32,000 nt of DNA from Allobaculum fili (GTDB lineage: Bacteria; Bacillota_I; Bacilli_A; Erysipelotrichales; Erysipelotrichaceae), in NCBI RefSeq assembly GCF_020969955.1, contig NZ_JAHDSX010000003.1, positions 60,001-92,000 on the forward strand, in the 5' to 3' direction. Positions 3,814 through 24,234 of the stretch are shown piece after piece (the first letter of the stretch is position 1; every line of letters begins with the position of its first letter). The position numbers and the translations under genes are program-made. Under the pieces are notes generated by a model, which made no database searches, was not told where the DNA came from, and saw only the letters and a program-made list of their open reading frames with translations.

Positions 3814-4117
3814 TGTACACTCCTCCTTTCTTTTTTCAAAAGCAGAAATTCAGTAAAGCAATTACAGTAAGGCAAATCCATCATGGATTCGAAGGAACGG
3901 ATCTAAAGCGGGGAAAAAGCCGACTGGCTTCATCGCAAAATGAAATTTTCATCTTCTTCGTGAATTTCCATCCGCGAAAAATAGATAAAGGATAGAAGAA
4001 CGAGAAGGAAAAGCCGCTGCAGGAAAAAACAGAAGGAAAGAAGAGATTTGGCAGCAGTTCCCCTCTTCTTTCGATCTTTCAATCCTTTGAAACTTTTCGA
4101 ATCATGATCCTATAGGT

Positions 4118-4157
4118 AAATAGCTCCTGCATTGGAAGGGCAGTGCAGGAGCTATTT
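4118..4157. repeat. Perfect 14-bp inverted repeat (AAATAGCTCCTGCA - 12 nt - TGCAGGAGCTATTT) in the spacer downstream of the tubulin-like gene
   Basis: Arms at 4118-4131 and 4144-4157 are exactly complementary. No U-run follows on either strand, so this is not a canonical intrinsic terminator. Confidence 0.8.
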
Positions 4158-4264
4158 CAAACGTTCAGCCAGATCCTGGCTATTCTTTACAGAACCAGAG
4201 AGAAGCCAAAGCGATTTCTTCTGAATCTTTCAGTGAAGTAAAGGATTCGGGAAATTCGAATACT

Positions 4265-7200
4265 TTAAGCGTTCTTTGCTTCTTCGCCGTTCTTTGCTTC
4301 TTCGGCATTTTTTGCCGCCGCATGAATCATTTCCTGATACTTGCGATCGTAGAGCTCTTTCATCGTTGGTTCGTGATGATACTTCAGCTTGTAGAGATAC
4401 TTGTTATCGACGATCTCATCAATGCGGTCGCGAATCAGAGTTACGGATTCATCGTCAAAGCGTTTTGCCGGCTTCGGTACGTTTACGTAATCAGTCATAT
4501 TGTTCAGGAAAAGCTGGAACTGATCGGAAATAATCGAGAAGGCTACCGCGTACATCTCTTCTTCGCCTGTAAACGTGCTGACATAGTTTTCGATCAGAGC
4601 GATCAGGTTATCGATCATGGAAGTGAAGTCGGACAGATAGTAATCGCAGTTCGGCATGCTGTATTTGAGCCAGAAGAGAAGATCGAATACCGATGGTTTC
4701 ATGGGGCTCTTTACAGGGATGAATTCCCGGAGAACGAATTTTGGCTCGTCCTCGCGGACAGCTTCTTCATCGTAGTAATCGCCGAGTGCCTTTTTCTCAT
4801 CCAGCCAGTTGATTCGACGGATCAGGGTAGACTGCGCGAGAGACAGGCTCTTCTTCACCTGCTTTTCCTTTTCCGCTTCCATTTTGCGAAGCATGATGTC
4901 TACCTGCGGCGGGTTGATGCTTAAGGCGTCGAGAACTTCGTAAAGTTCATCGCAGCTTGTGCCGTTTGGAACAATGAAGTCTTCGTTGCTGGAGTTGGAA
5001 GGCTTATAGATTACGTCCATGCCGTCGAGGTGATTGGAATCGACTTTCTGATCCACATCCCCGGTAAGCATTCCCCAGAGGAAAGCCTGGAAGATTCCGT
5101 CTTCGACAATCTTCTGGTTGCGGTCATCCAGATCCGGCATATACTTCGTCAGATGCCAGTGACGGTCCATGTGGGGAGTGATCTCGAAATTCTTCTCTAC
5201 GTTCGGACCCAGTTTCCTGTAAATCCGCATATAGGCTTCGTAGTAGTCTCCGCCTGGCTTTCCATTTTCCGGAGCGCGGAAGCGTTTGAAGTCACCCGGA
5301 TTGAGTGTATATACCGCTTTGTAGACGAGCAGATCGTACTTGGAAATGTTTTTATCCGCAACGCCGCCAAGTTCCTGATTCAAATACTTCTGAACAAAGT
5401 CATGGCGAAGCGGGTCGTCATCCAGCAGAACCGCCGGGTTATAGGCAGCTGCACGAATCACGTGACCTTCCACACCCATCGGCTCTTCGAGGAACATACT
5501 GGCCAGATTGTTGACTTCGGTCAGGGTATCCGCAGCGACCAGTTCTACATCTTCACGGCTGAGCTCATCGGCATGACGTTCAATTTCTACTTCTTTCATC
5601 AGAGCGGAAATGACGTCCATGTCAATGACTTGCGCGAAATGATTCTGAATTTCATCTTTGTAGTATTTGATGATCACATCGCGGAACAGTTTGCCAAAAT
5701 GCGAAGCTGCCGGAGGACGCTTTTCCGTTTTGGAATATTCCAGAATATCCTGGAAAATCAGAGCGGAAAGCTTGCCGGTAATTGATTCCTGCGCATCCGC
5801 TGCCCCGACGATATCGAGAAGTTCTTCCAGGCAGGCTTGACTGGTACATGTATAGCGAATAGCGCTGCCGTCGCGGTTGGCAATCTGCTGAGGAATCAGG
5901 CGTACGCGATTGCTTTCTTTTTCCACAAACGTTGGATACGTTTTATAGAAGTCATCAAAATCGCTGGCCAGCTGAGTAAAGAATTTAATGCCTTCGCCAT
6001 AGACAATCAGTTTTGCCCATGCGCTGGCAAACGTGAAAAATTCGGATTCATCACTGACAAGCGTTTCCGTTTCCTCAATAAATTTCTTGATGATCCGTCT
6101 TGAAATTTTGTTTCGATTTTTCTTGTTGTAGCGATCGTTCGCCGTTTCCACTTTATTTGTCGTAGCGGGATCATCGAACGGATGCAGCATGGATCGTTTG
6201 GCATCATCGTCTTCGCCAAGTTCCTCCTGGGCCGTCGAGTAGGCATAATTGCAGTTGCGAACCATGGCATAAACCATGTAGCGAACGGCGTTTGGATGAA
6301 CGAAGCCTCCGTCTTCCGTCTTCAGATAATGCTGGAAGTAATAGGGTTTCGGATTCTTTCCTCGAGGTGAAGCGCTGAAAACATCCAGGGCAACGTGACG
6401 GCCGGTTTCACGGGAAACGCGCATCAGACTTTGTGCAAGTCGAATGATGGCCCCTTCCAGAGAATTGATCGCGCCTTTATCGACTTTGCCTTTGGAAGCC
6501 TGCAGGCGTGAACGCTGTTTGTTGATCTCAAAAAGGATCTGTTTGATCTCTTCGTTCTCGCGGATTTTCTTTTCCAGATGACTATCCAGAGCATGGACGA
6601 AGGATCGGGACAGTTCTTCCCACTGTGTTCCTTCTCCATATTCATCTTCGTGTTCTTTATGGGTCTGGCGGAAAATCATCTGCTGGAATGTGCCTTTGTC
6701 ATCGGATTTGGAGTCTACATTCTTAAGGTAGAACGTATGCGGGTCTTCAAATTCGACCGAAGGATCCTGCTTTTTCTCCGCTTTCCGTTTATTCAGGTCT
6801 TCTGTATACGCTTTATCGATCGTCAGCCATTCTTCACCAAGCTGTTCAAAGCAGGTCTGTCCGGCGAGATAGTCGAGAATTTCTTCATACGGATATTTCA
6901 GGACCGCAGATCCGGCACCGCAGAAACGATCCCGTCCGCCCGACTGAATGAGCGCCTTAATGGCATTGTCTTCACTGGAGTTGCTTCGACTGGATGCGCC
7001 GCTGATCGCCTGCGCGTAAATCGTATTGGCTGCATACGTCATGTATTCATCGAAGCTGCTGAGCGAAAGATCATCCGCGTTGCGGCGATCGAACAGGAAG
7101 CAGAAATTGAATGGCGATTCGTTGTAGTTCACATCTTTTCCGGACATTGGGTGAGGAACTGAGAACTCAAGATCTTTGTACTTTGTGTTTTCCAGAGCCT

Positions 7201-7858
7201 GGTCGCCTTTGCGCATGAAGGCATCCAGCTCACGGACGGATGCATAGGCATTGGCAAAGATGCTTGCCTTCTCATCCTGGCTCTTTGCGGAAGCGAAAAT
7301 TTCCGGCAGCAGGAAGAAACCGCGAACAACCGATCCGGTTTTGTTAAAGCTGGAGTTGAGAAGATGCTTAATGTACATCGCAATAGGAATTACGATTCCA
7401 GAGCCCGTACCGCCGGCTAAGGAAGACACAATAATGACGCGGATCGCCTGGTTGCCAGCATCGCCGTTGAGCCGGAACAATGTGTCGATCGCATCGTCGA
7501 GCGCACGCAGCTTGCCTTTGCTCATCGCTTCGTCCAGGGCCAGCCGGCTGATCGCACGAACCTGTCCTGCACCTTCTGTCGGTGTCTTGCTGTTCAGAAT
7601 GGTATGAATGGGGAACCAGTCTTCACGGGCGTGTCTGTTGCGCTTGAGATAGTCTTCAATTTTATAAGGTGCCGATGTCTGAATCTGTACGACCGTGGCA
7701 TCTTCTTCTTTTCTGTGTCTCAGATCATTCCGGTCTGTATCAATGCAGACAAACTGCAGGCGGTTTCTGTCTTTCAATGACTTCGCCATCTTCGAAAGCT
7801 TCGTGCAGATCGTACTGCCCGCGCCGCCAAGTCCAATAATTACTGTTGGAGCAGTCAT
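4265..7858 (-). CDS. Giant (1197 aa) tubulin/FtsZ-superfamily GTPase-like protein (Tubulin_2 / FtsZ-like type) with a long unassigned helical C-terminal extension
   Basis: The N-terminus carries the tubulin/FtsZ nucleotide-binding loops in order. T1 is VIIGLGGAGS (nt 7814-7834), T3 is TEGAGQVRAISRLAL (aa 94-108), and the T4 signature is SSLAGGTGSGI (AGGTGSG = nt 7397-7417). These are followed by FANAYASVRELD, reminiscent of tubulin YNATLS..L.E. A strong RBS (AAAAGGAGGAAATGGA) precedes the ATG. There is no signal peptide or TM helix. Confidence 0.85.
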   Translation of the reverse strand: MTAPTVIIGLGGAGSTICTKLSKMAKSLKDRNRLQFVCIDTDRNDLRHRKEEDATVVQIQTSAPYKIEDYLKRNRHAREDWFPIHTILNSKTPTEGAGQVRAISRLALDEAMSKGKLRALDDAIDTLFRLNGDAGNQAIRVIIVSSLAGGTGSGIVIPIAMYIKHLLNSSFNKTGSVVRGFFLLPEIFASAKSQDEKASIFANAYASVRELDAFMRKGDQALENTKYKDLEFSVPHPMSGKDVNYNESPFNFCFLFDRRNADDLSLSSFDEYMTYAANTIYAQAISGASSRSNSSEDNAIKALIQSGGRDRFCGAGSAVLKYPYEEILDYLAGQTCFEQLGEEWLTIDKAYTEDLNKRKAEKKQDPSVEFEDPHTFYLKNVDSKSDDKGTFQQMIFRQTHKEHEDEYGEGTQWEELSRSFVHALDSHLEKKIRENEEIKQILFEINKQRSRLQASKGKVDKGAINSLEGAIIRLAQSLMRVSRETGRHVALDVFSASPRGKNPKPYYFQHYLKTEDGGFVHPNAVRYMVYAMVRNCNYAYSTAQEELGEDDDAKRSMLHPFDDPATTNKVETANDRYNKKNRNKISRRIIKKFIEETETLVSDESEFFTFASAWAKLIVYGEGIKFFTQLASDFDDFYKTYPTFVEKESNRVRLIPQQIANRDGSAIRYTCTSQACLEELLDIVGAADAQESITGKLSALIFQDILEYSKTEKRPPAASHFGKLFRDVIIKYYKDEIQNHFAQVIDMDVISALMKEVEIERHADELSREDVELVAADTLTEVNNLASMFLEEPMGVEGHVIRAAAYNPAVLLDDDPLRHDFVQKYLNQELGGVADKNISKYDLLVYKAVYTLNPGDFKRFRAPENGKPGGDYYEAYMRIYRKLGPNVEKNFEITPHMDRHWHLTKYMPDLDDRNQKIVEDGIFQAFLWGMLTGDVDQKVDSNHLDGMDVIYKPSNSSNEDFIVPNGTSCDELYEVLDALSINPPQVDIMLRKMEAEKEKQVKKSLSLAQSTLIRRINWLDEKKALGDYYDEEAVREDEPKFVLREFIPVKSPMKPSVFDLLFWLKYSMPNCDYYLSDFTSMIDNLIALIENYVSTFTGEEEMYAVAFSIISDQFQLFLNNMTDYVNVPKPAKRFDDESVTLIRDRIDEIVDNKYLYKLKYHHEPTMKELYDRKYQEMIHAAAKNAEEAKNGEEAKNA

Positions 7859-8058
7859 TCCATTTCCTCCTTTTTTCTTTTTCTCTTTGTAGTGCTGATT
7901 TTTATTTCTGACTGGCCAGGCCAGCCTGTGAAACCAATAGCGAAAATGCCCGTTCGTCTCAAGTCCGCTTCCGTTAATTTCCCTTAGAACATACGGCTTT
8001 ACACAAGGCCTTCTGGATCCTGGACGGGCGGGTTTAAACCTTGTGAAGCCATTCCGGA

Positions 8059-10698
8059 TCAGTGTTTTTTGTTGGAAAATTTGAAGCTGACGGTGACATT
8101 GGGGTCGGTCATCACCTTAAGACCCTTAAGCACAAACGGTGTTTCATATCCGAACACAAGATTGATGACCTTTTCCGGATTCGTACCCAGCGAATAATTT
8201 TTATGGTTAAACGTAAAAGCGCATCGGTTGCAGAGGGCTTCTGGATTTTCCCAGCGAATGTTCCCGCCTTTAACCGCGGTGAACTGCAGGCTGAGTTCAG
8301 AAATAATTCCGTTTGTATTTCCTAATTCGAAATTCAGCGTTGCACTCTCGGGTTTAAACGGATTAATCCGGTCGCTGAAGGACAGTTCGTAATCCTGCCG
8401 CGGACGGCCTCTTCCCTCCAGTCCCATCCTGATTCCGCGCCGATCCAGATAATGGCCTTTGGCGCTGACATATGTACCCCGTTTAAAACGCGGTTTGGTA
8501 ATAAATTTATAGACAAGGAACAGGGTAAGAAGCGATGCCAGAACAATCAGGATGAATTTCAGTAAATACGCCCACAGAGAAAGCGGCATGATGCTGATCG
8601 CATCTTCTGTCTGGCCTTCTTCCTGCTGTCCGCTGGCCAGCGTAATGTCCAGGTCCACGTTCAGATCCAGGTCGTTGGGAAGGACGCTGGTTGCTGCGGG
8701 TCCGCCCAGATAGAAGCGGTAACACGATGGCTGCTCATCTTTGACTACATCAAATTCCAGCGACTGGAAGCAGACCCACCGAATGAGCTGATCGAGAAAA
8801 TTCGGGGCGTGCTGGCTGGCTGTAAACGTAAAGCTGCTTACGCCTCTTTCCCATTCGTCTTCATTAAGATCTCTCAGTGAGCCGTCCTCTTCTTCGACCT
8901 GCACTTTGGCGAGAATATAGGCTTCGCTTCCCGAGCCTCTCTGGTTCGGATCGAACATGTAGGTTCGTTCGCCTTTTTTATACGTCTCCTCAGGATTCTG
9001 AAGCGTAATCATCAGATTCAGCGGCTCTGGTGCGACATAGCGAATTTCCACGTTGCCTTCCCCCGCCTGCTGATAGCTGCCGTTATCGCGGGTGACTTTG
9101 AGGACAAGATTCTGAGTTGTCGATGTAATGCCCGATCCCTTCTGATCGGTCGCATAAGAAGGCGTCAGATTTACGACGCCGTCCTGGTCGCTCATTGAGA
9201 TCTCCCAGTTCACCCCTTCGGTACCGGTGACTTCGAATGAGTAGGAATCAAAGGTATCCTTATTGATTCGGGTTCCATCCGGTGCCGAGACCGAAGCCTG
9301 CACAGGCTGCTCTCCGCTCAGCGTTCCCGGGTTGATATCGTATCCAGCCGGCTGCGAAAAGAGGACGGAGATCGGTGCGTCTTTTACATCCAGTTTTGCC
9401 GATTCTCCCGTCATGTTGATATTTCCCGGAAGCCGGGCGACCGACTGAAGAGTGGCTTTGCCTGGTGCTAAATTCAGTTTTTCTCCGTTGGTGTACGTGA
9501 CTGTGTTTCCGTCTTCATCCGTTACGGTCAGCGCAAATTCCGAACCTTTAAGAAGTTCCGACTGAGAAGGGTCAATCGGTGTTCCCGTAAGCGGGTCAAA
9601 GATCTGAATAACGACTGTACTTTCTCCGCCAGGAATGGATATGCCGTCCTGAATTTCTGTATCGGTAGTTACTTCGGATCCGCTGCGCAGAATCGTCCGG
9701 AATTCAATTCCGGGTTCTACATACACATCCACGTCATCGGACGTACTTTCGAATGTGTACTTTCCCGAAGAGAAAGGCTTCTTTGGATCCTTGGCTTCAT
9801 ACGTCACCACTTTGCCGTTCAGATTTGGAGCAATGGCACAACCCGAATTGCATTCCGGCTGCGGAGTCTTATCGTTTACCGAAACCTCTACAGAGAAAGG
9901 CTTGGCCGGTACATCTTCGCCGTTGATTTTTGCGTTCGTTACTTCTGTCTGCTTGCCCTGAGCAAAAACGATGAATTTTGAAATGGGTACGTCCGCCTGA
10001 AAGGAATAGGAGGAATCTCCCTGAAGCGTGACTTTCTGCAGGGAAAATACCTTCTGGGCAATTTCTGTCAGAGCACCCAGAATCGAACTCGTATCAATGT
10101 AGTACGCTTCGTAGCCGTCGTGACTCAGACTGATCTCCTCCGCATAGGACCCGATTCCCACATAGATCATATTGATGCCGTTCACGCCCGCATATTTCTG
10201 GAAATCGGATCGAATCTCCTCATTGCTCAGTTCGGTTGTATCGTTGAAAAACGCACCGTCTGTCAAAATGACAAGCCATTTCTGCTGAGCTGTGGACTGT
10301 TTGAGGTTTTCGCCCGCGGCATCGACGGCCTGGATCGGCGTGCCGGATGTATCCTTCATGTCATTGATCCGTTTGACACGATCGGCTGGATCTTCCGTTC
10401 CCTTTAAAGTAAAGAAGTCATTTTTCGAATCGTTATCTTCGGCTTTGCTCATCGGAAAAACGTTCAGTGTATCTTCTTCACCCATAAAGGCTGAAAAAAC
10501 TTCCATTGCATATTTCGCCTGAGACCAGCTGTCCATCCGGGAATTGCTCATACTGCCGGAATCGTCGTAGACAACGTTGATCTGCGTCGTATCCTTGCTG
10601 GTTTCCATCGCGGAAATCGGTGCGGTCCAGAAGGACCCGAACACTGTGAAAGCAGCCAGCATTGAAGCGAATACTTTTTCCATTTTTTTAATGAACAT
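8059..10698 (-). CDS. Secreted, C-terminally membrane-anchored von Willebrand factor A (vWA/MIDAS) domain protein, 879 aa
   Basis: Sec-type signal peptide (MFIKKMEKVFASMLAAFTVFGSFWTAPISA/ME), then a vWA start with an intact DxSxS MIDAS motif (VVYDDSGSMS; DDSGS = nt 10552-10566). A ~480-aa beta-rich T/S/V/G region follows, then a TM helix (LWAYLLKFILIVLASLLTLFLVYKFI) followed by KPRFKRG (positive-inside) and a ~150-aa cytoplasmic tail. The RBS is AGGAAG, 7 nt upstream of the ATG. Confidence 0.85.
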   Translation of the reverse strand: MFIKKMEKVFASMLAAFTVFGSFWTAPISAMETSKDTTQINVVYDDSGSMSNSRMDSWSQAKYAMEVFSAFMGEEDTLNVFPMSKAEDNDSKNDFFTLKGTEDPADRVKRINDMKDTSGTPIQAVDAAGENLKQSTAQQKWLVILTDGAFFNDTTELSNEEIRSDFQKYAGVNGINMIYVGIGSYAEEISLSHDGYEAYYIDTSSILGALTEIAQKVFSLQKVTLQGDSSYSFQADVPISKFIVFAQGKQTEVTNAKINGEDVPAKPFSVEVSVNDKTPQPECNSGCAIAPNLNGKVVTYEAKDPKKPFSSGKYTFESTSDDVDVYVEPGIEFRTILRSGSEVTTDTEIQDGISIPGGESTVVIQIFDPLTGTPIDPSQSELLKGSEFALTVTDEDGNTVTYTNGEKLNLAPGKATLQSVARLPGNINMTGESAKLDVKDAPISVLFSQPAGYDINPGTLSGEQPVQASVSAPDGTRINKDTFDSYSFEVTGTEGVNWEISMSDQDGVVNLTPSYATDQKGSGITSTTQNLVLKVTRDNGSYQQAGEGNVEIRYVAPEPLNLMITLQNPEETYKKGERTYMFDPNQRGSGSEAYILAKVQVEEEDGSLRDLNEDEWERGVSSFTFTASQHAPNFLDQLIRWVCFQSLEFDVVKDEQPSCYRFYLGGPAATSVLPNDLDLNVDLDITLASGQQEEGQTEDAISIMPLSLWAYLLKFILIVLASLLTLFLVYKFITKPRFKRGTYVSAKGHYLDRRGIRMGLEGRGRPRQDYELSFSDRINPFKPESATLNFELGNTNGIISELSLQFTAVKGGNIRWENPEALCNRCAFTFNHKNYSLGTNPEKVINLVFGYETPFVLKGLKVMTDPNVTVSFKFSNKKH

Positions 10699-11511: not shown

Positions 11512-11601
11512 GGAGTCGTGTCCGAGCGGTTTAAGGTGCAGTCTTGGAAAGGCTGTGTAGGCGAAAGCTTACCCAGGGTTCGAATCCCTGCGACTCCGCC
11601 A
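11512..11601 (+). tRNA. tRNA-Ser (anticodon GGA), type II with long variable arm, CCA encoded
   Basis: Acceptor stem GGAGTCG/CGACTCC. Anticodon stem CAGTC/GGCTG with loop TTGGAAA (GGA at 11546-11548). Long variable arm, T-arm CAGGG-TTCGAATC-CCTG, discriminator G and a 3' CCA (11599-11601). Confidence 0.9.
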
Positions 11602-15661: not shown

Positions 15662-16168
15662 TTATTCTTCGCAGGACTCTCCGCAGTTGCCGCAGAAACG
15701 GGCATCCAGCGGAAGTTTGGTGCCACAGAACGGGCAGTATTTAAACGTCATCGGCTGCTCGAACGGGTCTGAACGGTTTGAATCGCCGTTTCCGGTTTTG
15801 TTTCTGGAATCCAGATCTTCACACGGGCTGAGACTTTCGAGTCCATCTAAACTGTCCAGACTCTCAAGATTATCGAGACTGTCCAGATCGATTGAGCGAA
15901 GCTGGTCAAATATGCCGCCGGTTGAAGCGGCAGGTTCCGGTTTTGGCAGGTCCATCGTCTCAGTATGACGATCCCGCAGTTTGAGCTGTTCTTTAAGATG
16001 CGTAATCTGATCAAAATAAAGAATCAGTTCTGGCGTCGGTTCTTCGAAACGATTTTCATAAAACGCTTTGCCCAGTTCCCGGTACGCCGCATCGAGGGCT
16101 TCCAGAGACGATTCCCCTTGATCGGCTTTTGGCATTCGAATAAAAACTGTTTTATTATTTCCGCTCAT
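15662..16168 (-). CDS. Small cytoplasmic protein with C-terminal zinc ribbon and acidic Leu-Asp/Glu-Ser repeats (168 aa)
   Basis: C-terminal CPFCGTKLPLDARFCGNCG zinc-ribbon motif and a central IDLDSLDNLESLDSLDGLESL repeat. The ATG at 16168 lies 4 nt after the upstream stop (TAA 16175-16173). Confidence 0.75.
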   Translation of the reverse strand: MSGNNKTVFIRMPKADQGESSLEALDAAYRELGKAFYENRFEEPTPELILYFDQITHLKEQLKLRDRHTETMDLPKPEPAASTGGIFDQLRSIDLDSLDNLESLDSLDGLESLSPCEDLDSRNKTGNGDSNRSDPFEQPMTFKYCPFCGTKLPLDARFCGNCGESCEE

Positions 16169-16172
16169 AGTC

Positions 16173-16484
16173 TTACCCCAGTACAATCGCAAATTCGCGC
16201 TGCTTCAAATAGATCGCCGTATCCCGCCCAAGGTAATATCGACGATGTTTCCCCAGCGGCTGCCCGCTTTCTAAAAAGACAGCCCGGTTTTCAAACGGCT
16301 CAATTCCATACATGCCCAGATCACAATCGTAAAAAATGCCGACAGACGCCTTTTCGCTCTGTTCCAGAACGACTTCCGGCTCTTCCTCCATCTCCACGAA
16401 CACTTCTTCCAGATGGTGCAGCAGAACCGCTTCTCCCTTATGGAATGAGTCTGTGCCGATCAATACGCCTTCAAATCGGTTCAT
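16173..16484 (-). CDS. Hypothetical 103-aa protein (T7SS-locus associated)
   Basis: ATG 16484 is preceded by AAGGAGGA 8 nt upstream and overlaps the FHA gene 3' end by 14 nt. The track's 140-aa version starts further upstream without an RBS. No recognisable motif. Confidence 0.65.
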   Translation of the reverse strand: MNRFEGVLIGTDSFHKGEAVLLHHLEEVFVEMEEEPEVVLEQSEKASVGIFYDCDLGMYGIEPFENRAVFLESGQPLGKHRRYYLGRDTAIYLKQREFAIVLG

Positions 16485-17424
16485 GACGCAAATCCTCCTT
16501 GCTTTGTTCAAGCTGGAACAGCTGATTGGAGCCAAGGCGAAGAATCTGTCCGTCTCGGATTTCCGATTTCTGCGTGACGGGCTGATAATTGACAAACGTC
16601 TTGGAAGAAGAATTGAGATCTTCCACCATAACGCGATTCTCTTCCAGCGTCAGCCGGGCATGCCGCTCAGAGAGTGTCGTATCAAAATCGATGACAAAGT
16701 CGCTTTGCCTTCCGCATCCGATCAGCAGCTCTTTTTGCAGGCGAATCTGAATGCCCGTATTCATATGACGCAAAAACCAGTTTGACCGGGAACGCACGAT
16801 CGGTTCGGGCTCTGGGATGGAATCGGAATTTTGTACCATACCATCGTCAGAACTTTTCGGTATTTCAGCGAGCACTTCGACAGCTTCGGCAGCTTCGGCG
16901 GCTTCCTCTGGGGCTGGATCGGTTCTGAAGTCCAGCAAGTCATCCAGATCTCGCATAGCCGTATCTTCCGCCTTTTTTTCCTCGACTTCCTGATAATTTT
17001 GTTCCTGCTGAGTTTCGACAGGATCCGCTTTATCCTGCACGATGGTTTCTGCTGGACGTTCCGGTATGATTTCTGGAGCCTTCTTGCTCAAAAGGTCCGT
17101 CTCCACTTTGGAATCTGAGGAAAATTCCCGGAACATCTGATCAAAGATGTCTTTTTTGGATGACGTGGTTTCGTTTTTTGCGGATTCGAAAGCTGGAAAA
17201 CCGGCAGGCTTTTCTTCCGGAAAAACGAACGGTTCGGGTTCGGTCTGGGAATGGATGTTTGAGAAATCGCCGCCGCAGATTTCCTTTTCTTCGCTGTCTA
17301 CGGCTTTATGTCGAATGGGATCGCTGGCTGTTCTGGGAACCACGATCGGAATCAGCCCGCTAATACGGGCGGAAACCGGCGGGATATCCAGTGACGAAAC
17401 AGAAATCCACTTTGCTTTTTTCAT
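16471..17424 (-). CDS. FHA-domain protein with long acidic, probably disordered N-terminal region (317 aa)
   Basis: C-terminal FHA pattern: LLIGCGRQSDFVIDFDTTLSERHARLTLEENRVMVEDLNSSSKTFVNYQPV...DGQILRLGSNQLFQL (G-R ... S..HA ... N.t.vNg). ATG 17424 is preceded by AAGGAAGGA. Confidence 0.85.
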   Translation of the reverse strand: MKKAKWISVSSLDIPPVSARISGLIPIVVPRTASDPIRHKAVDSEEKEICGGDFSNIHSQTEPEPFVFPEEKPAGFPAFESAKNETTSSKKDIFDQMFREFSSDSKVETDLLSKKAPEIIPERPAETIVQDKADPVETQQEQNYQEVEEKKAEDTAMRDLDDLLDFRTDPAPEEAAEAAEAVEVLAEIPKSSDDGMVQNSDSIPEPEPIVRSRSNWFLRHMNTGIQIRLQKELLIGCGRQSDFVIDFDTTLSERHARLTLEENRVMVEDLNSSSKTFVNYQPVTQKSEIRDGQILRLGSNQLFQLEQSKEDLRHEPI

Positions 17425-17493
17425 GTGTCCTTCCTTATGGCTTATCGTGGTCTGCCTATCCTTTTTTCGGATTCCAAAGAAGGGGGCAGATAT

Positions 17494-17527
17494 ACGAAAC
17501 GTGGCTCGCTGTCGAACCACGTTTCGT
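17494..17527. repeat. Perfect 11-bp inverted repeat (ACGAAACGTGG - 12 nt - CCACGTTTCGT) between the small-protein genes and the FHA gene
   Basis: Arms at 17494-17504 and 17517-17527 are exactly complementary, with no adjacent U-run. A second AU-rich hairpin (CCGTTTTTT ... AAAAAACGG, 17583-17623) abuts the stop at 17626. Confidence 0.7.
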
Positions 17528-17625
17528 CAGGTGCGATCCAGTCGGGCTGTACCCGGCGGATCGCTGAAACAAATTATGGATGCCGTTTTTTCGTCCTGGC
17601 TCGACGTCATTTTGAAAAAACGGTT

Positions 17626-17922
17626 TTATTTCATTTGTCGCTGAAGATCCAGAGCGCTTTCTTCACATCGTTTCAGACTCTCTTCCAGATCCTGAAGGGT
17701 ACGGGTCATTGCCGATTCGTAGTCTTCGAGGAGCTGCTGGAGCTTCTGATTTTCCTGTATCAGCGTTTCGCACGGATGGGCAGCCGCGTGGAGTTCAGGT
17801 GACTGTCTCAGATTTGCGATGATGGAAAGAAGAAGGTTTCTCTCCTGCAGAAGAGTCTCTCTGGAGCGATGGAGCTGTCGTGCCGAGGTTCGAATTTTAT
17901 CCGAAGATCGCATTCGCCTCAT
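17626..17922 (-). CDS. Small coiled-coil protein (95-98 aa), possible T7SS substrate or partner
   Basis: Heptad-like helical sequence (LIQENQKLQQLLEDYESAMTRTLQDLEESLKRCEESALDLQRQ). Start is ATG 17922 or 17913, overlapping the upstream gene's 3' end (stop 17897) by 17-26 nt. Confidence 0.55.
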   Translation of the reverse strand: MRRMRSSDKIRTSARQLHRSRETLLQERNLLLSIIANLRQSPELHAAAHPCETLIQENQKLQQLLEDYESAMTRTLQDLEESLKRCEESALDLQRQMK

Positions 17923-18223
17923 CTTCCAGCGCCTTCAGATCATCCGTGATGGTGCTCTGTGTCTGGGTCATGGAATTGAGATAGTTTTCAATCTGGGTTC
18001 TGGCAGCAATGGTTTTCGTGATTACCGTCTGCACATTATGCAGATGGGTATCCAGGTTTCGGACCGCGTCGTTTCCCACGTTGCCAATTACGCCGTTCTG
18101 CATATTTTCTTTAACTTTCTGCAGGTCTTTCTGATATCCCTGCATCTTATCCAGTTCGGCTCCAAGTTTGTCGAGAGTCTGTCGATATTTTTCTTCCGAG
18201 ACTTTAAGTTTCAGTTTTTCCAT
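17897..18223 (-). CDS. Small helical protein, WXG100/ESAT-6-like size class (108 aa), no W-x-G
   Basis: ~100-aa two-helix-type composition with a G/N-rich turn in the middle (ENMQNGVIGNVGNDAV). The RBS is weak (AAAGAAAG). Confidence 0.6.
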   Translation of the reverse strand: MEKLKLKVSEEKYRQTLDKLGAELDKMQGYQKDLQKVKENMQNGVIGNVGNDAVRNLDTHLHNVQTVITKTIAARTQIENYLNSMTQTQSTITDDLKALEDEANAIFG

Positions 18224-18283
18224 AGTCTTTCTTTTAATGTGTTCTCTTTCTATTTTCTGATTGACTTAGATGTACAGTTTCGA

Positions 18284-18604
18284 TTACTTGCCTTTTCCGA
18301 TGCCGGCAGAGCGGAGGGAATCCGTTGCATTTTTCTCCGCGCCGACCAGGGATTCTCCAGCGCGGATAAAGCCCTTCGCCAGATCCCAGATGACCTGTAC
18401 ACAGGCATCCACCAGATCTACAAACTCATTGCCGACTTCTTTAAGGTGATCCGAGAATGTACCTTCGCTTTCCTCGTACAGCTCTCCAATCAGTGCGTCT
18501 ACCGCTTTGCTGCTTTCCTGGATAACAGTTCCAATGTTTTGAAGATCTTCGGCAGACATATCCATAACTTCTGTTGCGACTTCCAGTTCCCAATTTCCAC
18601 TCAT
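18284..18604 (-). CDS. WXG100/ESAT-6-like small helical protein (106 aa) with degenerate central motif (S-E-G instead of W-x-G)
   Basis: Strong RBS (AAGGAGGAAAG). The N-terminus MSGNWELEVATEV...AEDL is like the M.G.I.V..E.L starts of Esx proteins. The central LYEESEGTFSDHLKEV aligns by eye with the WEGQAFSRFEEQF hairpin of EsxA. Confidence 0.7.
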   Translation of the reverse strand: MSGNWELEVATEVMDMSAEDLQNIGTVIQESSKAVDALIGELYEESEGTFSDHLKEVGNEFVDLVDACVQVIWDLAKGFIRAGESLVGAEKNATDSLRSAGIGKGK

Positions 18605-18630
18605 AGTTCTTTCCTCCTTGTTTCTTTGTT

Positions 18631-18813
18631 TTACTCACCATTTCGGATCAGCCATTCTTTCAGGCGCCGGATCTGCTCGAGCTGAGCCTGACGCGCGTGA
18701 ATGTATTCCCGGGAAAATTCTCCCTCCGTTTCGCGCTGCCAGCTTTCCACGTCCATTTCTATACTGTGGATCAGCCTTTGAATCTGATCGAATAGTTCCT
18801 GTCGGTTCTGCAT
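18631..18813 (-). CDS. Small helical protein (60 aa), T7SS-locus associated
   Basis: The ATG at 18813 overlaps the YukD-like stop as TGATG (translational coupling). All-helical composition. Confidence 0.6.
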   Translation of the reverse strand: MQNRQELFDQIQRLIHSIEMDVESWQRETEGEFSREYIHARQAQLEQIRRLKEWLIRNGE

Positions 18814-19064
18814 CAAAGTAAATATAGTACATCCCCCTGACCGATCGAATAATCTTTCAAATCGTTGCCGCTTTTTAATACGCGCTGCTGTTTTTGACTA
18901 AACAGAACTTCCTGTTCGGAGGCGTAATACTTTCCGCCGGCCAGATTTTCAACCGCCTGAGCGAGCAGCTGGGTCAGTTCCTTGCAGTCCATCGAATCCG
19001 GAACCATCAGGTTGTATGTTTTCTGAATGGAAGGAACGTATAAATCGATCAGTATTTTTTCCAT
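18813..19064 (-). CDS. esaB: YukD/EsaB-family ubiquitin-like T7SS protein (83 aa)
   Basis: MEKILIDLYVPSIQKTYNLMVPDSMDCKELTQLL...LKDYSIGQGDVLYLL fits the YukD pattern (I.IDL ... dL.vp ... L.d.gI.dGD.L.L) and the gene lies immediately downstream of essC. Start is placed at the internal ATG 19064 (GAAAGGAA upstream). The track's 107-aa version lacks an RBS. Confidence 0.8.
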   Translation of the reverse strand: MEKILIDLYVPSIQKTYNLMVPDSMDCKELTQLLAQAVENLAGGKYYASEQEVLFSQKQQRVLKSGNDLKDYSIGQGDVLYLL

Positions 19065-19293
19065 AAACAGTTCCTTTCTTTGCAGCTCTATTTTCGCCGC
19101 CGTATCCATCCTGGCTTTCGTTCGTTCAGGGGACATTCCGTCCGAAAGAAGGCCTGCTCTGAACCGTCTTTCCTTTCCCGGAGTCCTTTATCTTTTCTGA
19201 ATCAGATCACTTTTCACTTTCCCGATCACCATCTCTTTTCCAATCCCTTTCTCTTTCCTGACCCGTATCTCGTGCAAAATGCACGCAGCCGGT

Positions 19294-22200
19294 CTAGCTG
19301 AGAACCGGCCGTTCATCCTCATCTTCCTGTGCGGTTTTCCTTAAATCGCCAAGCGGAAGGAAAATGGTTTCGACCTGATCGTTTTCCCAGATCAGCCCGT
19401 TATTGAGATTTTGCGTTTTGGATGGACGGACAATTCTGGAATATTCGCGCGGCAAAGTCACCAGATCCTGCCGGTCAAAGCATCCGCCAAATAACAGGGT
19501 CAGTTTCCCTTTGAAATGTGACTTCATCATAGCGTCGAAGCGTTCCGGGTCATTGGCAAGGGTGAATCTTCGAAGTTCTTCTACTTCCTCGAGGGTCAGA
19601 TTCCCTTCGTCCAGCTTTGATTTTTCTGTCTCGTGCAGTTTTCGGCTGGCCAGAGAAATGCGTTCCTTGTCCTGAGGATGCCAGCCGAATACAAAATAAA
19701 TATTGAAACCGGCTGTGTTGTTAATGATCCCGCTTAAAGGTCCGGCAGATCCGGCACTGAGATTCAGGATCAGATCCCCGTAATCGTCCACGAGAATAAA
19801 CAGAGGCTCTGTTCTTCTTCGCATCTCTTTGCGGACGATTTTCAGGCTGGCGGCTTTTTTCCAGTCTTCGATGCCTTTTTCCTTCTGGATTTCCAGGCGG
19901 ATCGTTTTGCGCTCCTTTGCGATTTTCGCAAGCTGATTGACGAACGTGTTCACCGTCTGAGCGGTCAGTTTTGTCCACTCGATTCCTTCTCGATGCGTTT
20001 TGGGAAGCTCAGAAGCACTCAGTCGAATCACAGAGCCCCCGCTCTTTTTGACGGCGGTCTGAATGGCGCCCATGACGTAGTTCACAGCGTCTGGATTTCC
20101 AAAGTAGACAGGCAGGGTGCTCAGCTGCTGAAACGGCAGCGCAATCGGGCGCAGCCGGCTGCGGATAATTCCAAGCGGAATGCGTTCTGGTTTGAACGGC
20201 GCGATGAACTCCTCATACGTCTGTTCCGGATCGATCTGCGTCAGATGATCGGGCTCGGCTGCGTCTTTCCAGATCGTATTCGCGGTTTCAATTTGCGAAA
20301 GGATCTGACCGTAGCGTTCGGCGTCATCGAGCTGAGGGTCGAGCGCGGCTGCCTGGAACTCTAAAACCCGCTTGTCCTTTCGGATGTAGCCGCGTCCGGG
20401 AAGCGGATCGGGAAAGGCCTTCGGCCGGATATCCAGCAGATCCTGATACAGATACATATCGGTCAGCCGTAAGGGCAAAGACGTCTGAATGACGCTCTGC
20501 TGTCTGGCGGTCACATTGCGCACGTCCGCGACGAGAAGCATGAACTGAATGCCGAAAGCCGGTCCGTCCCTCAGCAGCCGAAGAAGCTGATCGAGCGCCT
20601 GACGGCCCTGTCCCCTGTCGGGGAAATCGTCAAATCCGTCAATGATAAAAAACGTCAGCGGAAGGCGCTGCACTCGGCGCATGGACGCAAAGCTCGTCCG
20701 GTTATACTGCGCAAACAGTTTTTTGCGTTTTTCGAGCAGATCGTACGCAAACTGAATGAGCAGGCAGAGTTCCTCTTCGGAAGGTCGGCTCATGCACATG
20801 CCGACATGTTTCAGTTGGGAAAACATGCCCAGTGACTTTCCCGTCAGGTCGGCAATATAAAACTGCAGATCTTCCGGTGAATTTCTATCGATTGAAGTGA
20901 GAAGAATGGTTTCCGCCAGCCAGGTTTTTCCAGTTCCCGGCTCGCCGGCAATTAAAATGTTTCCCGCATTGGCCAGATCCAGCGTATAGGGCAGCTGTTC
21001 CTGATTTTCCGGATCATCCGTCAGACCGATCGTTACCGAATAGGAATCTTCCGGCTGCTTCAGAGAGCTCAGGCTGATCTGCGGATTGAGCGGGTCGAGC
21101 CATAAGGAAGGCACTTCGATTCCCTTCTGTCTGGCCAGATCGGACAAATAGGTCACTAAGGAAACGAGCTGCGAGCGGCCTTTTTGCCGTCTGGTCTGAA
21201 TCGGCTTGGTTTTAAAATACGGTTCGCCATTGGGATCGAGAAAAAGGATTTCCTTGTTTTCCGAAGACTGCGCTTCATCGGACGGCTTATACTCGGCGCC
21301 GGTCCACGCGGACTGACCCATCGCAAAGTACTCGTCGTATCCCACCAGCATGTAAAAGCGGCCGGTTTCCTTGATTTCGGCCGCATAAGGCCGGTTGATC
21401 ATGTCATTGGAGTCGCTGCGGTCCTGAACTTTCAGGCTGACGCGGAATTTGGTGTTGCTTTTGATCTGACCCGTGACGACACCCGCCGGTTTCTGGGTCG
21501 CCAGAATGAGGTGGACGCCAAGGCTTCGGCCGATACGTGCAGTAGAAACGAGCTGATCGAGAAATTCCGGATGCTGGTCATTCAGCTCCGCAAACTCATC
21601 GGAAATAATGAGCAGATGGGAAACCGGTTCGCTCACAACGCCGCGGCGGTAAAGCTGCTGGTAGCCGTAAATGTCCATCGTTCCTTCGTTGGCAATGGAT
21701 TTGGCTTCATTGAATATTTTCTGGCGGCGCTTGAGTTCACTCTCGATCGATGCCAGAGCCCGGTTCATCGTGCTTTCGTCCAGGTTGGTAATCGTACCCG
21801 CAACATGCGGCAGCTTGATTCCGCGCTGCGGATCCACAAACGCGCCCGTAAGACCTCCGCCCTTGAAGTCGATCAGAATAAACGAGACTTCGTACGGATG
21901 ATAGTTAACGGCCAGCGACAGAACGTAGGAAATGATGAACTCACTTTTACCCGACCCGGTCATACCGGCGATCAGGCCATGCGGGCCATGCTTTTTTTCA
22001 TGAATATCCAGCTCAAACAAAGACCCGTCGGGATGGACACCGACTGGTGCAGCCAGCGTTTTCATCGGGTTGGAATCTTTCCAGCGCTGTTCAATATCGA
22101 GATGTTCAATACGGCCGGCTTTGTACATTTCCAGAAAGGTCAGCATCGCCGGCAGTTCTTCTTCCTTTTTCTCTTTGGGACGGCGGATATTGGAAATTTC

Positions 22201-24048
22201 GCTGAACGCCTTCATCAGAGCGTTTCTGGAAATCGAAGCGTCCAGACAGAACAGATCCGGCTTTTCCTGATGTTCCAGCTGCAAAATATGAATGCCTCCC
22301 TCTTCGAGAGAAAAGACTTTCGTACACTCCTTAGGCAGGATGGTCGAAAAGCTGAAAATGCTGAAGCCAAGGTTGTGTCCGGCCGTGACTGCTGTCCAGA
22401 GCGATTTTGCGGATTCAAGCAGTTCCTGCGAAAAGGAGAAGACCAGATAGTACGGCGGGTTTTCCAGAACCTGTTCGCGGCGGCCTTCCTTTTTCTGCGC
22501 TTCTTCCACTCGTTCACTCAGACGCTTGGATGCTTCGGCTGCATCGGCTTCGCTGGTAATAATCCAGCGAAACTCCTGCCGGTCATCCCAGATGTGGGGC
22601 AGAAATTTTAAAAACGGATTTTCCTCCAGCATATCGCGGTCCATGACCAGAATGATTTTCAGCTCTTCCGACGCATGCAAGTAGCAGATCTGAAACAGGA
22701 GCCGGTAAAACAAGGAGAGCTTTCTCTGCAGGCTGCCGCGCACGCCGCAAATGTAATCCTCGATAAAATCGACTGTGATCGGCGCATCCGTCAAGGCGTA
22801 ATCCTGTTCGACGAGCCCGTACATTTTGAGGGCCAGAGAATCTTCATCGACGCCAAACGATCGGGATGGATACTGAATTTCACTTTTGAGCGGAACTTTT
22901 CCTTTGCCGATGCGCAGACGCAGAAAGTCCTGATGAACCGGTCTTCTTTCCCACAGCCGTCTACGGCTGGGCAGAAAGCGGAACAGATCGTCTTCCGACG
23001 GATTGTTTTCGTTGAGGTCCTGCAGTTCCATCGCCTGAACCGTTTCAATCTGATTCTGGATTTCACTGAGATATTCGTTGTAGCGAACATACCGGCGGTT
23101 TTCGTATTCTTTTCGTTCTTTCTCGGTAAACTTCGAAGTCAGCATGGGAAACATGACCGAACTGATCAGAGACGTGAAGTTTCCATTGAGCGCACTCATT
23201 CCGGAAAACACAGCCGGGCCGCCAAGGCGCAGCAGCAGAGGAATCTTGTTGGCGCTCATGGAAAGGGGCGGCAGGTCGACGGTAATTTTGACGGGATCAA
23301 AATGAAACGCACGTTCGCGCGGCTTGCGAAAAAACGGGATGCTTTCCCTTGGTTTGGGAAGAGAAGACCATTCCTTTAACTGAATGGGGTCCGTCAGAGG
23401 CGTCAGGGAGCGCACGACCGTATGTTCGGTCAGGCTCTGGATCGATAAAAAGCCTAATCCGACGACAATCAGACAGCCTGGAAATTCCAGACGGTCGCCG
23501 GCCTGAAGCGAACGCAGCGAAACAAATTCGCCGTTTACGCGCGTTCCAAACGAACTGTGCTCATCGCGCAGATGCATGCCCTCCGAGGAAAGATCGATCG
23601 TCGCATGCAGACGGGAGACGAGCGGATTATCGATTTGAATGTCGTTTTCTGACATTCGGCCGATGTGAATCTGACCGGTGCGCGGCAGGAGAAAGTTTTT
23701 CATCAAAACGGTATCTTCCGCATCCTCGATCAGCAGAACCTGCAGCCGAATCGAACCGAATTCAATTTCAAAGGCTTCCAGATTCTGAAGATCCAGACTC
23801 GTCTGCGGCTGCGTCTGATCCCAGGCTTTCAGCCGCCCGTTTCCAAAAATGGAAATTCTCTGCTCCTTTTCGTTGCGTTCAAACCAGAGGTTGATGAAGC
23901 TGTATCGATCCGAAAGCCAGATGCGACTTCGTCCGATGGGGTACTGGGACAGAGATTTGACCGTGATCAGCTGCCCTTCATGAATGAAGTACAGATTTCT
24001 GGAGCATTCTGGTACCTGTTTTAAAGAGAGTCCCTGTTCTCGACCCAT
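19294..24048 (-). CDS. essC: Type VII secretion ATPase EssC/YukB (FtsK/SpoIIIE family, N-terminal FHA domains), 1584 aa
   Basis: The N-terminal FHA region has a degenerate FHA1 and a canonical FHA2 (IHIGRMSENDIQIDNPLVSRLHATI...FGTRVNGEFV, about nt 23464-23676). A hydrophobic stretch consistent with two TM helices follows (aa ~268-303). There are three P-loop-type domains: D1 Walker A GMTGSGKS (nt 21943-21966) with Walker B LLIISDEF, D2 GEPGTGKT with IIDGFDD, and D3 without a Walker A. The RBS is AGGAAGTG. Confidence 0.95.
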   Translation of the reverse strand: MGREQGLSLKQVPECSRNLYFIHEGQLITVKSLSQYPIGRSRIWLSDRYSFINLWFERNEKEQRISIFGNGRLKAWDQTQPQTSLDLQNLEAFEIEFGSIRLQVLLIEDAEDTVLMKNFLLPRTGQIHIGRMSENDIQIDNPLVSRLHATIDLSSEGMHLRDEHSSFGTRVNGEFVSLRSLQAGDRLEFPGCLIVVGLGFLSIQSLTEHTVVRSLTPLTDPIQLKEWSSLPKPRESIPFFRKPRERAFHFDPVKITVDLPPLSMSANKIPLLLRLGGPAVFSGMSALNGNFTSLISSVMFPMLTSKFTEKERKEYENRRYVRYNEYLSEIQNQIETVQAMELQDLNENNPSEDDLFRFLPSRRRLWERRPVHQDFLRLRIGKGKVPLKSEIQYPSRSFGVDEDSLALKMYGLVEQDYALTDAPITVDFIEDYICGVRGSLQRKLSLFYRLLFQICYLHASEELKIILVMDRDMLEENPFLKFLPHIWDDRQEFRWIITSEADAAEASKRLSERVEEAQKKEGRREQVLENPPYYLVFSFSQELLESAKSLWTAVTAGHNLGFSIFSFSTILPKECTKVFSLEEGGIHILQLEHQEKPDLFCLDASISRNALMKAFSEISNIRRPKEKKEEELPAMLTFLEMYKAGRIEHLDIEQRWKDSNPMKTLAAPVGVHPDGSLFELDIHEKKHGPHGLIAGMTGSGKSEFIISYVLSLAVNYHPYEVSFILIDFKGGGLTGAFVDPQRGIKLPHVAGTITNLDESTMNRALASIESELKRRQKIFNEAKSIANEGTMDIYGYQQLYRRGVVSEPVSHLLIISDEFAELNDQHPEFLDQLVSTARIGRSLGVHLILATQKPAGVVTGQIKSNTKFRVSLKVQDRSDSNDMINRPYAAEIKETGRFYMLVGYDEYFAMGQSAWTGAEYKPSDEAQSSENKEILFLDPNGEPYFKTKPIQTRRQKGRSQLVSLVTYLSDLARQKGIEVPSLWLDPLNPQISLSSLKQPEDSYSVTIGLTDDPENQEQLPYTLDLANAGNILIAGEPGTGKTWLAETILLTSIDRNSPEDLQFYIADLTGKSLGMFSQLKHVGMCMSRPSEEELCLLIQFAYDLLEKRKKLFAQYNRTSFASMRRVQRLPLTFFIIDGFDDFPDRGQGRQALDQLLRLLRDGPAFGIQFMLLVADVRNVTARQQSVIQTSLPLRLTDMYLYQDLLDIRPKAFPDPLPGRGYIRKDKRVLEFQAAALDPQLDDAERYGQILSQIETANTIWKDAAEPDHLTQIDPEQTYEEFIAPFKPERIPLGIIRSRLRPIALPFQQLSTLPVYFGNPDAVNYVMGAIQTAVKKSGGSVIRLSASELPKTHREGIEWTKLTAQTVNTFVNQLAKIAKERKTIRLEIQKEKGIEDWKKAASLKIVRKEMRRRTEPLFILVDDYGDLILNLSAGSAGPLSGIINNTAGFNIYFVFGWHPQDKERISLASRKLHETEKSKLDEGNLTLEEVEELRRFTLANDPERFDAMMKSHFKGKLTLLFGGCFDRQDLVTLPREYSRIVRPSKTQNLNNGLIWENDQVETIFLPLGDLRKTAQEDEDERPVLS

Positions 24049-24234
24049 ACAATCACTTCCTAACTAAATCTTCCCGATTTTTCCCTGTCCTGTCCTGCCT
24101 GCCTCGGCTTCTGCACAGAAAAACACGTCGGTACGTCGACGCCATCCGGCAAAACCGTCTTTATGGCCTGCCGAGCTTAGCGTTAAGCGCAGGTTCACCC
24201 TGAGACGGCTGGCGCATGAGGCTGGCGGAACTGG

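Follow-up and report, generated by a model that had tools for sequence, protein, structure and literature searches.

The tubulin-like protein encoded in a 32,000-nt stretch of Allobaculum fili DNA (GCF_020969955.1, contig NZ_JAHDSX010000003.1, positions 60,001-92,000 of the forward strand; hereafter the window) is a cytoplasmic protein of the FtsZl1 family (Pfam Tubulin_2); no other branch of the tubulin/FtsZ GTPase superfamily is as divergent. We hold this family identity to be at least nearly certain. The gene is the second of a cassette that runs leftward on the minus strand in the order vWA protein, tubulin-like protein, B5, B12 and a variable fifth gene (Table 1). Taken as a whole, the arrangement is, on balance, probably best explained if the protein acts as a GTP-gated membrane scaffold that links a vWA sensor to effectors. 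It is not a new kind of protein, since descriptions of its family and of its operon date from 2010 (Makarova and Koonin, 2010; PMC2875224).

An earlier note on this DNA had marked out a reading frame of 1197 codons at this place and had taken its product for a highly divergent protein of the tubulin/FtsZ fold. The reading frame is confirmed; it starts with ATG, and an AAGGAGG ribosome-binding site lies 8 nt 5' of the start. The core of the inference also holds, through a match to the family model PF13809 (Tubulin_2) and through the structural matches of an AlphaFold model described below. The protein is not unclassified: FtsZl1/Tubulin_2 has been a known family since 2010, and relatives are already named at NCBI, some of them as 'tubulin-like doman-containing protein'. 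Membership was judged by a family hidden Markov model (HMM) score above the curated gathering score, and the protein reaches 205.9 bits against a gathering cut-off of 27 (E=1.4e-60), with aa 6-335 aligned to HMM positions 1-350 of 356. The Pfam scan of the protein found neither FtsZ_C nor Tubulin_C, and nothing else besides tubulin-type models. A hydropathy scan found no transmembrane segment, its single peak (aa 139-157) being the buried strand S4 and the T4 loop. There are more than 900 homologues, and all 120 of those listed are full length (about 1130-1250 aa). The window protein is 29-40% identical to relatives from species-representative genomes and 55% identical to its best metagenomic relative.

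FtsZl1 was defined from sequence sixteen years ago, as an FtsZ-like domain at the N-terminus, followed by a coiled coil and then a helical C-terminal domain. The T6-H7/T7 elements and the C-terminal domain of FtsZ and tubulin were described as unrecognisable in it, and its genes were found to share operons with genes for vWA and membrane proteins (Makarova and Koonin, 2010; PMC2875224). A phylogenetic study of 2023 used FtsZl1 proteins merely as an outgroup. The present locus adds a clean representative and no new family.

The comparison with FtsZ, TubZ, CetZ and tubulin that the earlier note had suggested was made with an AlphaFold2 model that covers aa 1-480 and draws on an alignment of 68 sequences (predicted local distance difference test, pLDDT, 83). 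A Foldseek search of the PDB with this model returned 182 matches at E<1e-3, and all 50 listed belong to the tubulin/FtsZ superfamily, not to another P-loop or Rossmann fold. The best of them, each with a probability of 1.0 and E-values from ~2e-6 to 1e-4, are TubZ (2xka, the first match), FtsZ (1fsz/7ojb), CetZ (4b45/4b46), BtubA (2btq) and gamma-tubulin. Residues 1 to ~310 are accordingly modelled in the tubulin/FtsZ nucleotide-binding fold. Strands (S) and helices (H) follow one another in the model as S1 (5-10), H1, S2 (34-40), S3 (57-60), a set of inserts, H3 (101-113), S4 (140-146), H4, S5 (177-183), H5 (194-217), an inserted hairpin, S6 (252-256) and H7 (269-285). A low-confidence loop (287-292) then leads into H8 (293-305), a helix of 41 residues (324-364) and more helices. 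No beta-rich activation domain is seen after H8 in the model by DSSP; the only strands there are the short ones of a hairpin (400-404, 411-415) within the helical stalk.

The likeness to FtsZ lies in the Rossmann-like GTPase domain with its T1 GxGGxG, T2 DTD/NTD, T3 GAG and T4 GGTG(S/T)G loops, and in H7 followed by an acidic motif at the T7/H8 position, for which the window protein has a candidate. It differs from FtsZ in that it is without the FtsZ_C beta-sheet domain, a GxxNxDxxD T7 loop and the conserved C-terminal peptide, and carries several inserts between T1 and T4 and ~850 extra residues. With tubulins and BtubA/B it shares the serine of T4 GGTGSG, a tubulin-like distance between T1 (aa 9-15) and T4 (aa 148-154), and a T5/H5 motif, NAYA...E.D, that resembles tubulin EPYNA...L.E; it has no intermediate domain and no Tubulin_C, and the PF00091 score is below cut-off. 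TubZ, FtsZ, CetZ, BtubA and gamma-tubulin all match at similar E-values and no subfamily is clearly nearest. The suggestion of a closer kinship with tubulin than with FtsZ is thus not sustained, and the T4 serine is no evidence of a special affinity to tubulin.

That TubZ should be the first structural match, and that TubZ and PhuZ are likewise highly divergent tubulin-fold GTPases, might suggest a TubZ/PhuZ-like DNA-segregation protein, or else an additional FtsZ paralogue for cell division. We regard this idea as effectively refuted. FtsZ, CetZ and tubulins score as well as TubZ, the region past H8 is entirely different, and the gene sits in a chromosomal or integrative-element operon of membrane proteins, with no TubR-like partner and no tubC or other centromere. 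By tblastn, distant relatives came up in no more than 10 plasmid records and a single unannotated 'phage' contig. As for division, the FtsZ equivalog model TIGR00065 gives 15.9 bits against a cut-off of 295, and the FtsZ C-terminal domain is missing.

Conservation of the nucleotide-binding loops was read from an alignment of 68 homologues, to which the invariances below refer; distant Tubulin_2 members from megaplasmids were compared separately. All motif coordinates of the earlier note were reproduced when recomputed, and the T1 and T4 loops that it had recognised as those of the tubulin/FtsZ superfamily are present as GLGGAGS and AGGTGSG, with invariant glycines. G9, G11 and G14 of T1 are invariant in distant family members too. 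A T2-like D40-T41-D42 (compare NTD in FtsZ) is invariant or nearly so, and in the T3 region E95-G96-A97 and Q99-V100-R101 are invariant. Hhalign, run with the N-terminal family profile against a single E. coli FtsZ sequence (validated against the PDB) and a single beta-tubulin sequence, placed this region on FtsZ GLGAGA and tubulin YTEGAE. The alignment was sensible from T1 to T4; past H5 its confidence was near zero, so it was not used for T7. The T4 stretch is the sole region matched by Pfam PF00091. Further along, a T5-like RGFxxLP (R179-G180-F181, L184, P185) is invariant or nearly so, and N203, Y205, A206, E210 and D212 of the H5 motif NAYA/ExD within FANAYASVRELD (aa 201-212) are invariant. 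F252, F254 and N260 are invariant and represent S6 and a T6-like asparagine; the segment holding N260 is a candidate T6 loop. In H7, Y272, A276 and A277 are invariant. T1, T3, T4 and the H5 motif are all retained in the distant plasmid-borne members of the family.

The T7 loop and the catalytic acid of H8 read NxDxxD in FtsZ and NxDxxE in alpha-tubulin. The earlier note saw no convincing T7 loop, and a regular-expression search of the whole protein indeed finds no canonical GxxNxD/E, in agreement with the 2010 description of the family. A candidate acidic motif, RSNSSEDN, does exist, however. Its residues R291, S292, S294, E296, D297 and N298 are invariant, N293 is present in 67 of the 68 homologues, and position 295 is S or N. 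In the model the motif spans the end of the low-confidence loop past H7 and the start of H8. Because this H7-to-H8 transition is the topological place of a T7 loop, we propose E296/D297 as the T7 equivalent, on the strength of topology and conservation. The D297-N298 core recurs in distant Tubulin_2 proteins, as 'QEDN' in Bacillus and 'VFDN' in Thermaceae, and the motif is followed by a conserved segment resembling strand S7 (G308-R...G314-A-G316). The strings SSEDN, NSSED and SEDN were not found in the supplementary alignment of 2010.

The loss of the beta-rich domain past H8 and of a canonical T7 motif would be expected of a GTP-binding switch or dimeriser that no longer polymerises and that regulates its partners, much as degenerate NTPase modules do in multi-gene systems, filament formation having been lost. 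We consider such a switch doubtful. All of the loops that contact the nucleotide have been retained, and RSNSSEDN is invariant or nearly so at 7 of its 8 positions, a degree of conservation that would be difficult to account for if the site did not act in trans. The missing activation domain nevertheless makes polymerisation uncertain, and we put the chance that the protein self-assembles in a GTP-dependent manner at about even.

The remainder of the protein had been described as ~850 residues of unassignable, charged helix. This description does not stand, for the region is a conserved subfamily-specific module with many invariant residues. Together with the helical stalk, this module of roughly 700 aa stands where a canonical activation domain would be. 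A second AlphaFold model, covering aa 441-1197, consists mainly of long helices and one alpha/beta subdomain, in which F789, E791, G795, Y846, Y850, H896, W901, H902, Y951, C969 and E974 are invariant. Foldseek searches of the PDB and of the viral library BFVD with this model gave no match better than E ~0.05. When the C-terminal region was compared by phmmer with 1.84 billion representative sequences, only 268 clusters (50% identity) matched. The full-length matches come from proteins of ~1100-1300 aa and set in at about residue 460-540, and the shorter ones look like gene fragments. The module is accordingly conserved, specific to this FtsZl1 subfamily and always fused to the tubulin-like domain. 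That it binds the membrane or partner proteins, as had been supposed, is plausible because the operon encodes membrane proteins. The extreme C-terminus ends in a duplicated EEAKN peptide (aa 1186-1190 and 1192-1196) that had been traced to an 18-nt repeat at 4271-4306; the repeat is confirmed by Tandem Repeats Finder and is slightly longer than first thought (Table 1). The closest homologues (<=55% identity) end differently and are without the EEAKN repeat, so that the repeat is a strain-specific expansion in a non-conserved tail.

The partners of the tubulin-like protein are strictly conserved in their order. Among species-representative genomes, the order vWA/tubulin-like/B5/B12 is identical in about 80 loci, which belong to Lachnospiraceae, Oscillospiraceae, Erysipelotrichales and Microbacteriaceae, with a few metagenome-assembled genomes labelled Myxococcota or Proteobacteria. 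Of the loci with a contig that extends far enough, essentially all have the vWA gene upstream of the tubulin-like one. Its product in the window is predicted to be secreted and anchored in the membrane by one transmembrane segment, with a cytoplasmic tail of 150 aa. It contains a long region that matches no Pfam domain, and over 788 aa is 29% identical to a homologue (locus L002) that itself matches Pfam VWA_2. The third product, B5, takes its name from Additional file 5 of Makarova and Koonin (2010; PMC2875224). The fourth, B12, is cut by the left end of the window; on a near-identical contig (L001) it is complete and has 1538 aa, with a polytopic N-terminus, a large cytoplasmic region, a Cys4 zinc ribbon (C1314/C1317/C1336/C1339, invariant) and a zincin domain with an invariant HExxH...E (H1430-E1431-x-x-H1434...E1461). 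A B12 profile gave only weak metallopeptidase matches in the PDB and Pfam, and actinobacterial copies encode the zincin part in a gene of its own (~275 aa).

The same four genes were tabulated in 2010 as RUMLAC_01529 to 01526 of Ruminococcus lactaris ATCC 29176 and as BACCAP_04124 to 04121 of 'Bacteroides capillosus' ATCC 29799 (Makarova and Koonin, 2010; PMC2875224), so that the cassette itself, and not only the protein family, was already known. Those operons share with the window locus the Pfam family, the gene order, the protein sizes and a membrane-associated protein with zincin and zinc finger; their FtsZl1 proteins have the same architecture of FtsZ-like GTPase, helical stalk and helical C-terminal module in ~1140-1200 aa. 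The window locus differs from them in its strain-specific repeat tail and in that 451 nt, with a hairpin among them, separate the tubulin-like gene from B5. The gap (3814-4264) compares with about 20-40 nt at other loci, and the inverted repeat within it may be a partial terminator, an internal attenuator or a processing site.

The fifth gene varies between loci. In 23 loci it encodes an FtsK/HerA-like (FtsK_SpoIIIE-family) ATPase, and 7 further loci have short or truncated matches to this ATPase. About 11 loci (the window's own contig included) have an E863-type transmembrane protein, 9 a transglutaminase-like protein and 6 an RCK-like protein. The window locus thus has a transmembrane protein of the E863 type where many loci carry the ATPase. 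Proteins of this type (~640-860 aa, no Pfam match) follow B12 in most of their loci and occur where the FtsK-like ATPase is absent; examples are L001 18767-21358 and L092 19581-21752, with about 9 more. A GmrSD_C nuclease is found in 5 actinobacterial loci. Its gene, for a protein of ~300 aa with the C-terminal domain of type IV restriction endonucleases (L062 20135-21088; equivalents in L066, L073, L077 and L079), lies upstream of the cassette in two of these loci and downstream in three.

The ATPase invites the thought that the cassette belongs to an apparatus for secretion or translocation, akin or accessory to type VII secretion systems (T7SS) or to conjugation, with B12 as the channel, the FtsK/HerA-like protein as the motor and the tubulin-like protein as the assembly scaffold. 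In the window and at L092, genes of a T7SSb (EssC, YukD, WXG100) do adjoin the cassette, and one copy of the cassette lies in a region resembling an integrative-conjugative element, beside a TraG gene. We nevertheless think such an apparatus improbable, given that a T7SS is adjacent at 2 of ~90 loci, the ATPase is absent from most loci, and neither a secreted substrate nor a WXG gene was found inside the cassette.

The flanks of the cassette vary between loci. One copy stands directly after integrase and TetR genes in the region just mentioned, which has TraG and Toprim genes and the character of an integrative-conjugative element; another is downstream of type I restriction-modification and HEPN genes, a third is near AbiE, and a fourth has an integrase gene on one side and a TIR-LRR gene on the other. 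These varied flanks, the integrase and element-like neighbours, the defence-type neighbours and analogous plasmid modules in Thermaceae together point to a cassette that is accessory and horizontally mobile. This bears on the proposal of Makarova and Koonin (2010; PMC2875224) that FtsZl1 takes part in membrane remodelling, which would make the cassette a housekeeping machine of the membrane or envelope that uses cytomotive filaments, for instance in vesicle formation, and not a conflict or defence system. In its favour, membrane proteins account for three of the four core partners, the operon link with vWA and membrane proteins is family-wide, and many flanking genes are ordinary housekeeping genes. 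We still judge a housekeeping role unlikely: the distribution is patchy (the 268 clusters among 1.84 billion representatives), some copies lie in the element-like region or beside integrases, the fifth gene varies as an effector would, and a zincin protease is odd for a pure remodelling machine.

Parallels to the cassette also exist among conflict systems. Kaur, Burroughs, Iyer and Aravind (2020; PMC7159879) described tubulin-plus-vWA neighbourhoods of Firmicutes and Actinobacteria among GAP1-N2 GTPase-centric conflict systems, in which a tubulin-domain protein with a C-terminal helical or coiled-coil extension accompanies a membrane-bound vWA protein with an extracellular domain. The cassette resembles them in both proteins and in the phyla concerned. 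Those systems are defined by a TRAFAC-clade (double-Obg-type) GTPase with N-terminal zinc ribbons, by GAP1 and by FNIII repeats (PMC7159879), whereas in the cassette their place is taken by B5, by B12 with its zincin domain and by the variable fifth gene.

A further parallel is found on megaplasmids of Thermaceae (Meiothermus, Allomeiothermus and Thermus), where a vWA protein, a tubulin-like protein of ~905 aa and a hypothetical protein of ~680 aa are followed by BrxL, next to Swt1-HEPN, WYL and transposase genes (Table 1). These modules resemble the cassette in combining vWA, Tubulin_2, a ~680-aa protein and a protease-like protein among defence-type genes. Over the N-terminal domain, their tubulin-like protein shares only 23-25% identity with that of the window; its C-terminus differs, and their protease is the Lon-like BrxL of BREX (bacteriophage exclusion) systems, not a zincin. 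The third gene was considered as a B5 homologue and rejected, as BLASTP finds no similarity. This association of a tubulin-like protein and a protease parallels the cassette, and we did not find it described in the literature searched.

These observations can be put together in the following model of the GTP-gated scaffold. GTP would be bound by the tubulin-like protein through its T1-T6 loops. Subunits would associate head to tail, with E296/D297 of RSNSSEDN completing the GTPase site of the neighbouring subunit. The resulting GTP-gated scaffold would sit under the membrane on its cytoplasmic side, where the vWA tail, B5 and B12 would serve as its docking partners, and would couple the binding of an extracellular ligand by the vWA/MIDAS (metal-ion-dependent adhesion site) domain to the B12 protease and the product of the fifth gene. 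The most likely role of such a scaffold would be in a conflict or surface-surveillance system. A role in sensor-to-effector signalling or conflict seems to us possible, though we lean somewhat against it. More tentative still, and rather doubtful in its full form, is the suggestion that the cassette is a GTP-driven machine embedded in the membrane, serving either as an anti-phage or anti-plasmid conflict system or as a surface sensor, in which the tubulin-like protein, despite the loss of the canonical activation domain, would polymerise via a non-canonical interface using E296/D297 and would relay vWA binding to the zincin or another effector.

Several points weigh against this model or against the identities on which it is built. 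At the level of the fold, PF00091 (Tubulin) scores 28.4 bits, below its cut-off of 33, and matches aa 140-167 only; TIGR00065 likewise fails; and the family profile, searched against the PDB at E<=1, found no FtsZ or tubulin chain, only spurious helical matches. The TM-scores of the Foldseek matches are modest, at 0.26-0.34 normalised by query and 0.32-0.51 normalised by target. At the level of assembly, polymerisation may fail or work differently where the activation domain is absent. The T7 assignment rests on helix order and spacing, the modelled loop 287-292 has a pLDDT <50, hhalign is unreliable beyond H5 and cannot back the assignment, and Deinococcus members of the family are without the RSNSSEDN motif. 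At the level of function, a Pfam search of the vWA, B5, B12, E863, ATPase and tubulin-like proteins found no double-Obg-type GTPase, GAP1 or FNIII, a negative limited to the sensitivity of the Pfam HMMs. None of the tubulin-like, vWA, B5 and B12 proteins was matched significantly in PADLOC-DB v2; the best result there was a marginal Csm5 match to the vWA protein (E=0.0093), and the FtsK-like ATPase gave generic P-loop matches only (mad8, SspH). The 122 nearest flanking open reading frames include a minority of defence matches (BrxB, BrxH, PifA, CARF, WYL, a type IV restriction enzyme) and many housekeeping genes, with no baseline for comparison. No biochemical, structural or genetic study of any FtsZl1 member was found in the literature.

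If the cassette is a GTP-driven membrane machine, this would be the first functional assignment for FtsZl1 and a new use of the tubulin fold; if it is a conflict or sensing system, the fold would be used for signalling, and not for division or segregation. In either case the locus provides handles: a confident model showing that the activation domain has been replaced, E296/D297 as a testable catalytic-loop candidate, an alpha/beta subdomain that is conserved and has invariant His, Cys and Glu, and a set of 4-5 partner genes with predicted topologies.

Table 1. Coordinates of the cassette, of elements of the tubulin-like protein and of neighbouring or analogous genes (window positions unless a locus of another contig, L, is named).
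Feature	Extent	Position (nt)	Strand	Basis or remark
Tubulin-like protein, FtsZl1 / Pfam Tubulin_2	1197 aa	4265..7858	-	ORF and PF13809; predicted cytoplasmic
Tubulin/FtsZ-type GTPase domain (S1-H1 through H8), predicted	aa 1 to ~310	6929..7858	-	AlphaFold and Foldseek
T1 loop GLGGAGS	aa 9-15	7814..7834	-	G9, G11, G12, G14 invariant
T3 region TEGAGQVR (E95 to R101), in GAGQVRAISRLAL	aa 96-108	7535..7573	-	Coordinates and invariant residues
T4 signature AGGTGSG	aa 148-154	7397..7417	-	G149 to G154 invariant
Strand S6 and candidate T6 loop FCFLFDRRNADDL	aa 252-264	7067..7105	-	252-256 strand in model
Candidate T7/H8 motif RSNSSEDN	aa 291-298	6965..6988	-	Conservation and position in model
Predicted helical stalk in place of beta-rich C-terminal (activation) domain	aa 324 to ~480	6419..6889	-	DSSP on model
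Subfamily-specific C-terminal module, mostly alpha-helical (predicted)	aa 441-1197	4268..6538	-	AlphaFold, pLDDT 87
Alpha/beta subdomain (predicted)	aa ~789-975	4934..5494	-	Holds most invariant C-terminal residues
18-nt tandem repeat encoding A(E)EAKN tail	2.6 copies	4270..4315	.	Tandem Repeats Finder, 89% matches
Perfect 14-bp inverted repeat AAATAGCTCCTGCA...TGCAGGAGCTATTT		4113..4155	-	Sequence read; no T-run after
Gene 1, vWA protein	879 aa	8059..10698	-	Signal peptide, MIDAS DDSGSMS, transmembrane segment aa 711-729
Gene 3, B5	659 aa	1834..3813	-	Predicted hairpin of two transmembrane segments, aa 447-500
Gene 4, B12, runs off left window end	First 609 aa	1..1829	-	100% identical to L001:13855-18471
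Zinc-ribbon protein		15662-16192	-	T7SSb-like locus
FHA protein		16471-17520	-	T7SSb-like locus
YukD-like protein		18813-19136	-	T7SSb-like locus
EssC		19294-24048	-	TIGR03928, 804 bits
Ser/Thr kinase with TPR repeats		24384-26411	-	T7SSb-like locus
TPR protein		26544-28655	-	T7SSb-like locus
Thermaceae modules		L087 5297-13374; L090 5366-14458; L091 5395-13354

The genes around the cassette in the window include the locus resembling a type VIIb secretion system (15662-28655, minus strand). Its genes were not taken as part of the system, as they adjoin the cassette at only two loci, the second of which, L092, belongs to a related clade and has them directly before the cassette. Closer to the cassette, a tRNA-Ser(GGA) gene at 11512-11601 (plus strand; Rfam 47.6 bits; ARAGORN) lies ~800 nt upstream of the vWA start and may be where a genomic island bearing the cassette integrated. 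Farther away, a SIR2-family protein is encoded at 30842-31591 (minus strand; PF02146, E=5e-48), near an HTH_3 (Cro/C1-type) regulator at 30101-30619 (plus strand); SIR2 domains are found in several defence systems. Outside the window, the 'phage' contig found by tblastn is MT836542.1 ('Bacteriophage sp.', 9.8 kb, from human faeces), the sole match in the phage collection; its homologue, encoded at 6931-9699, shows 32.5% identity across 78% of the protein.

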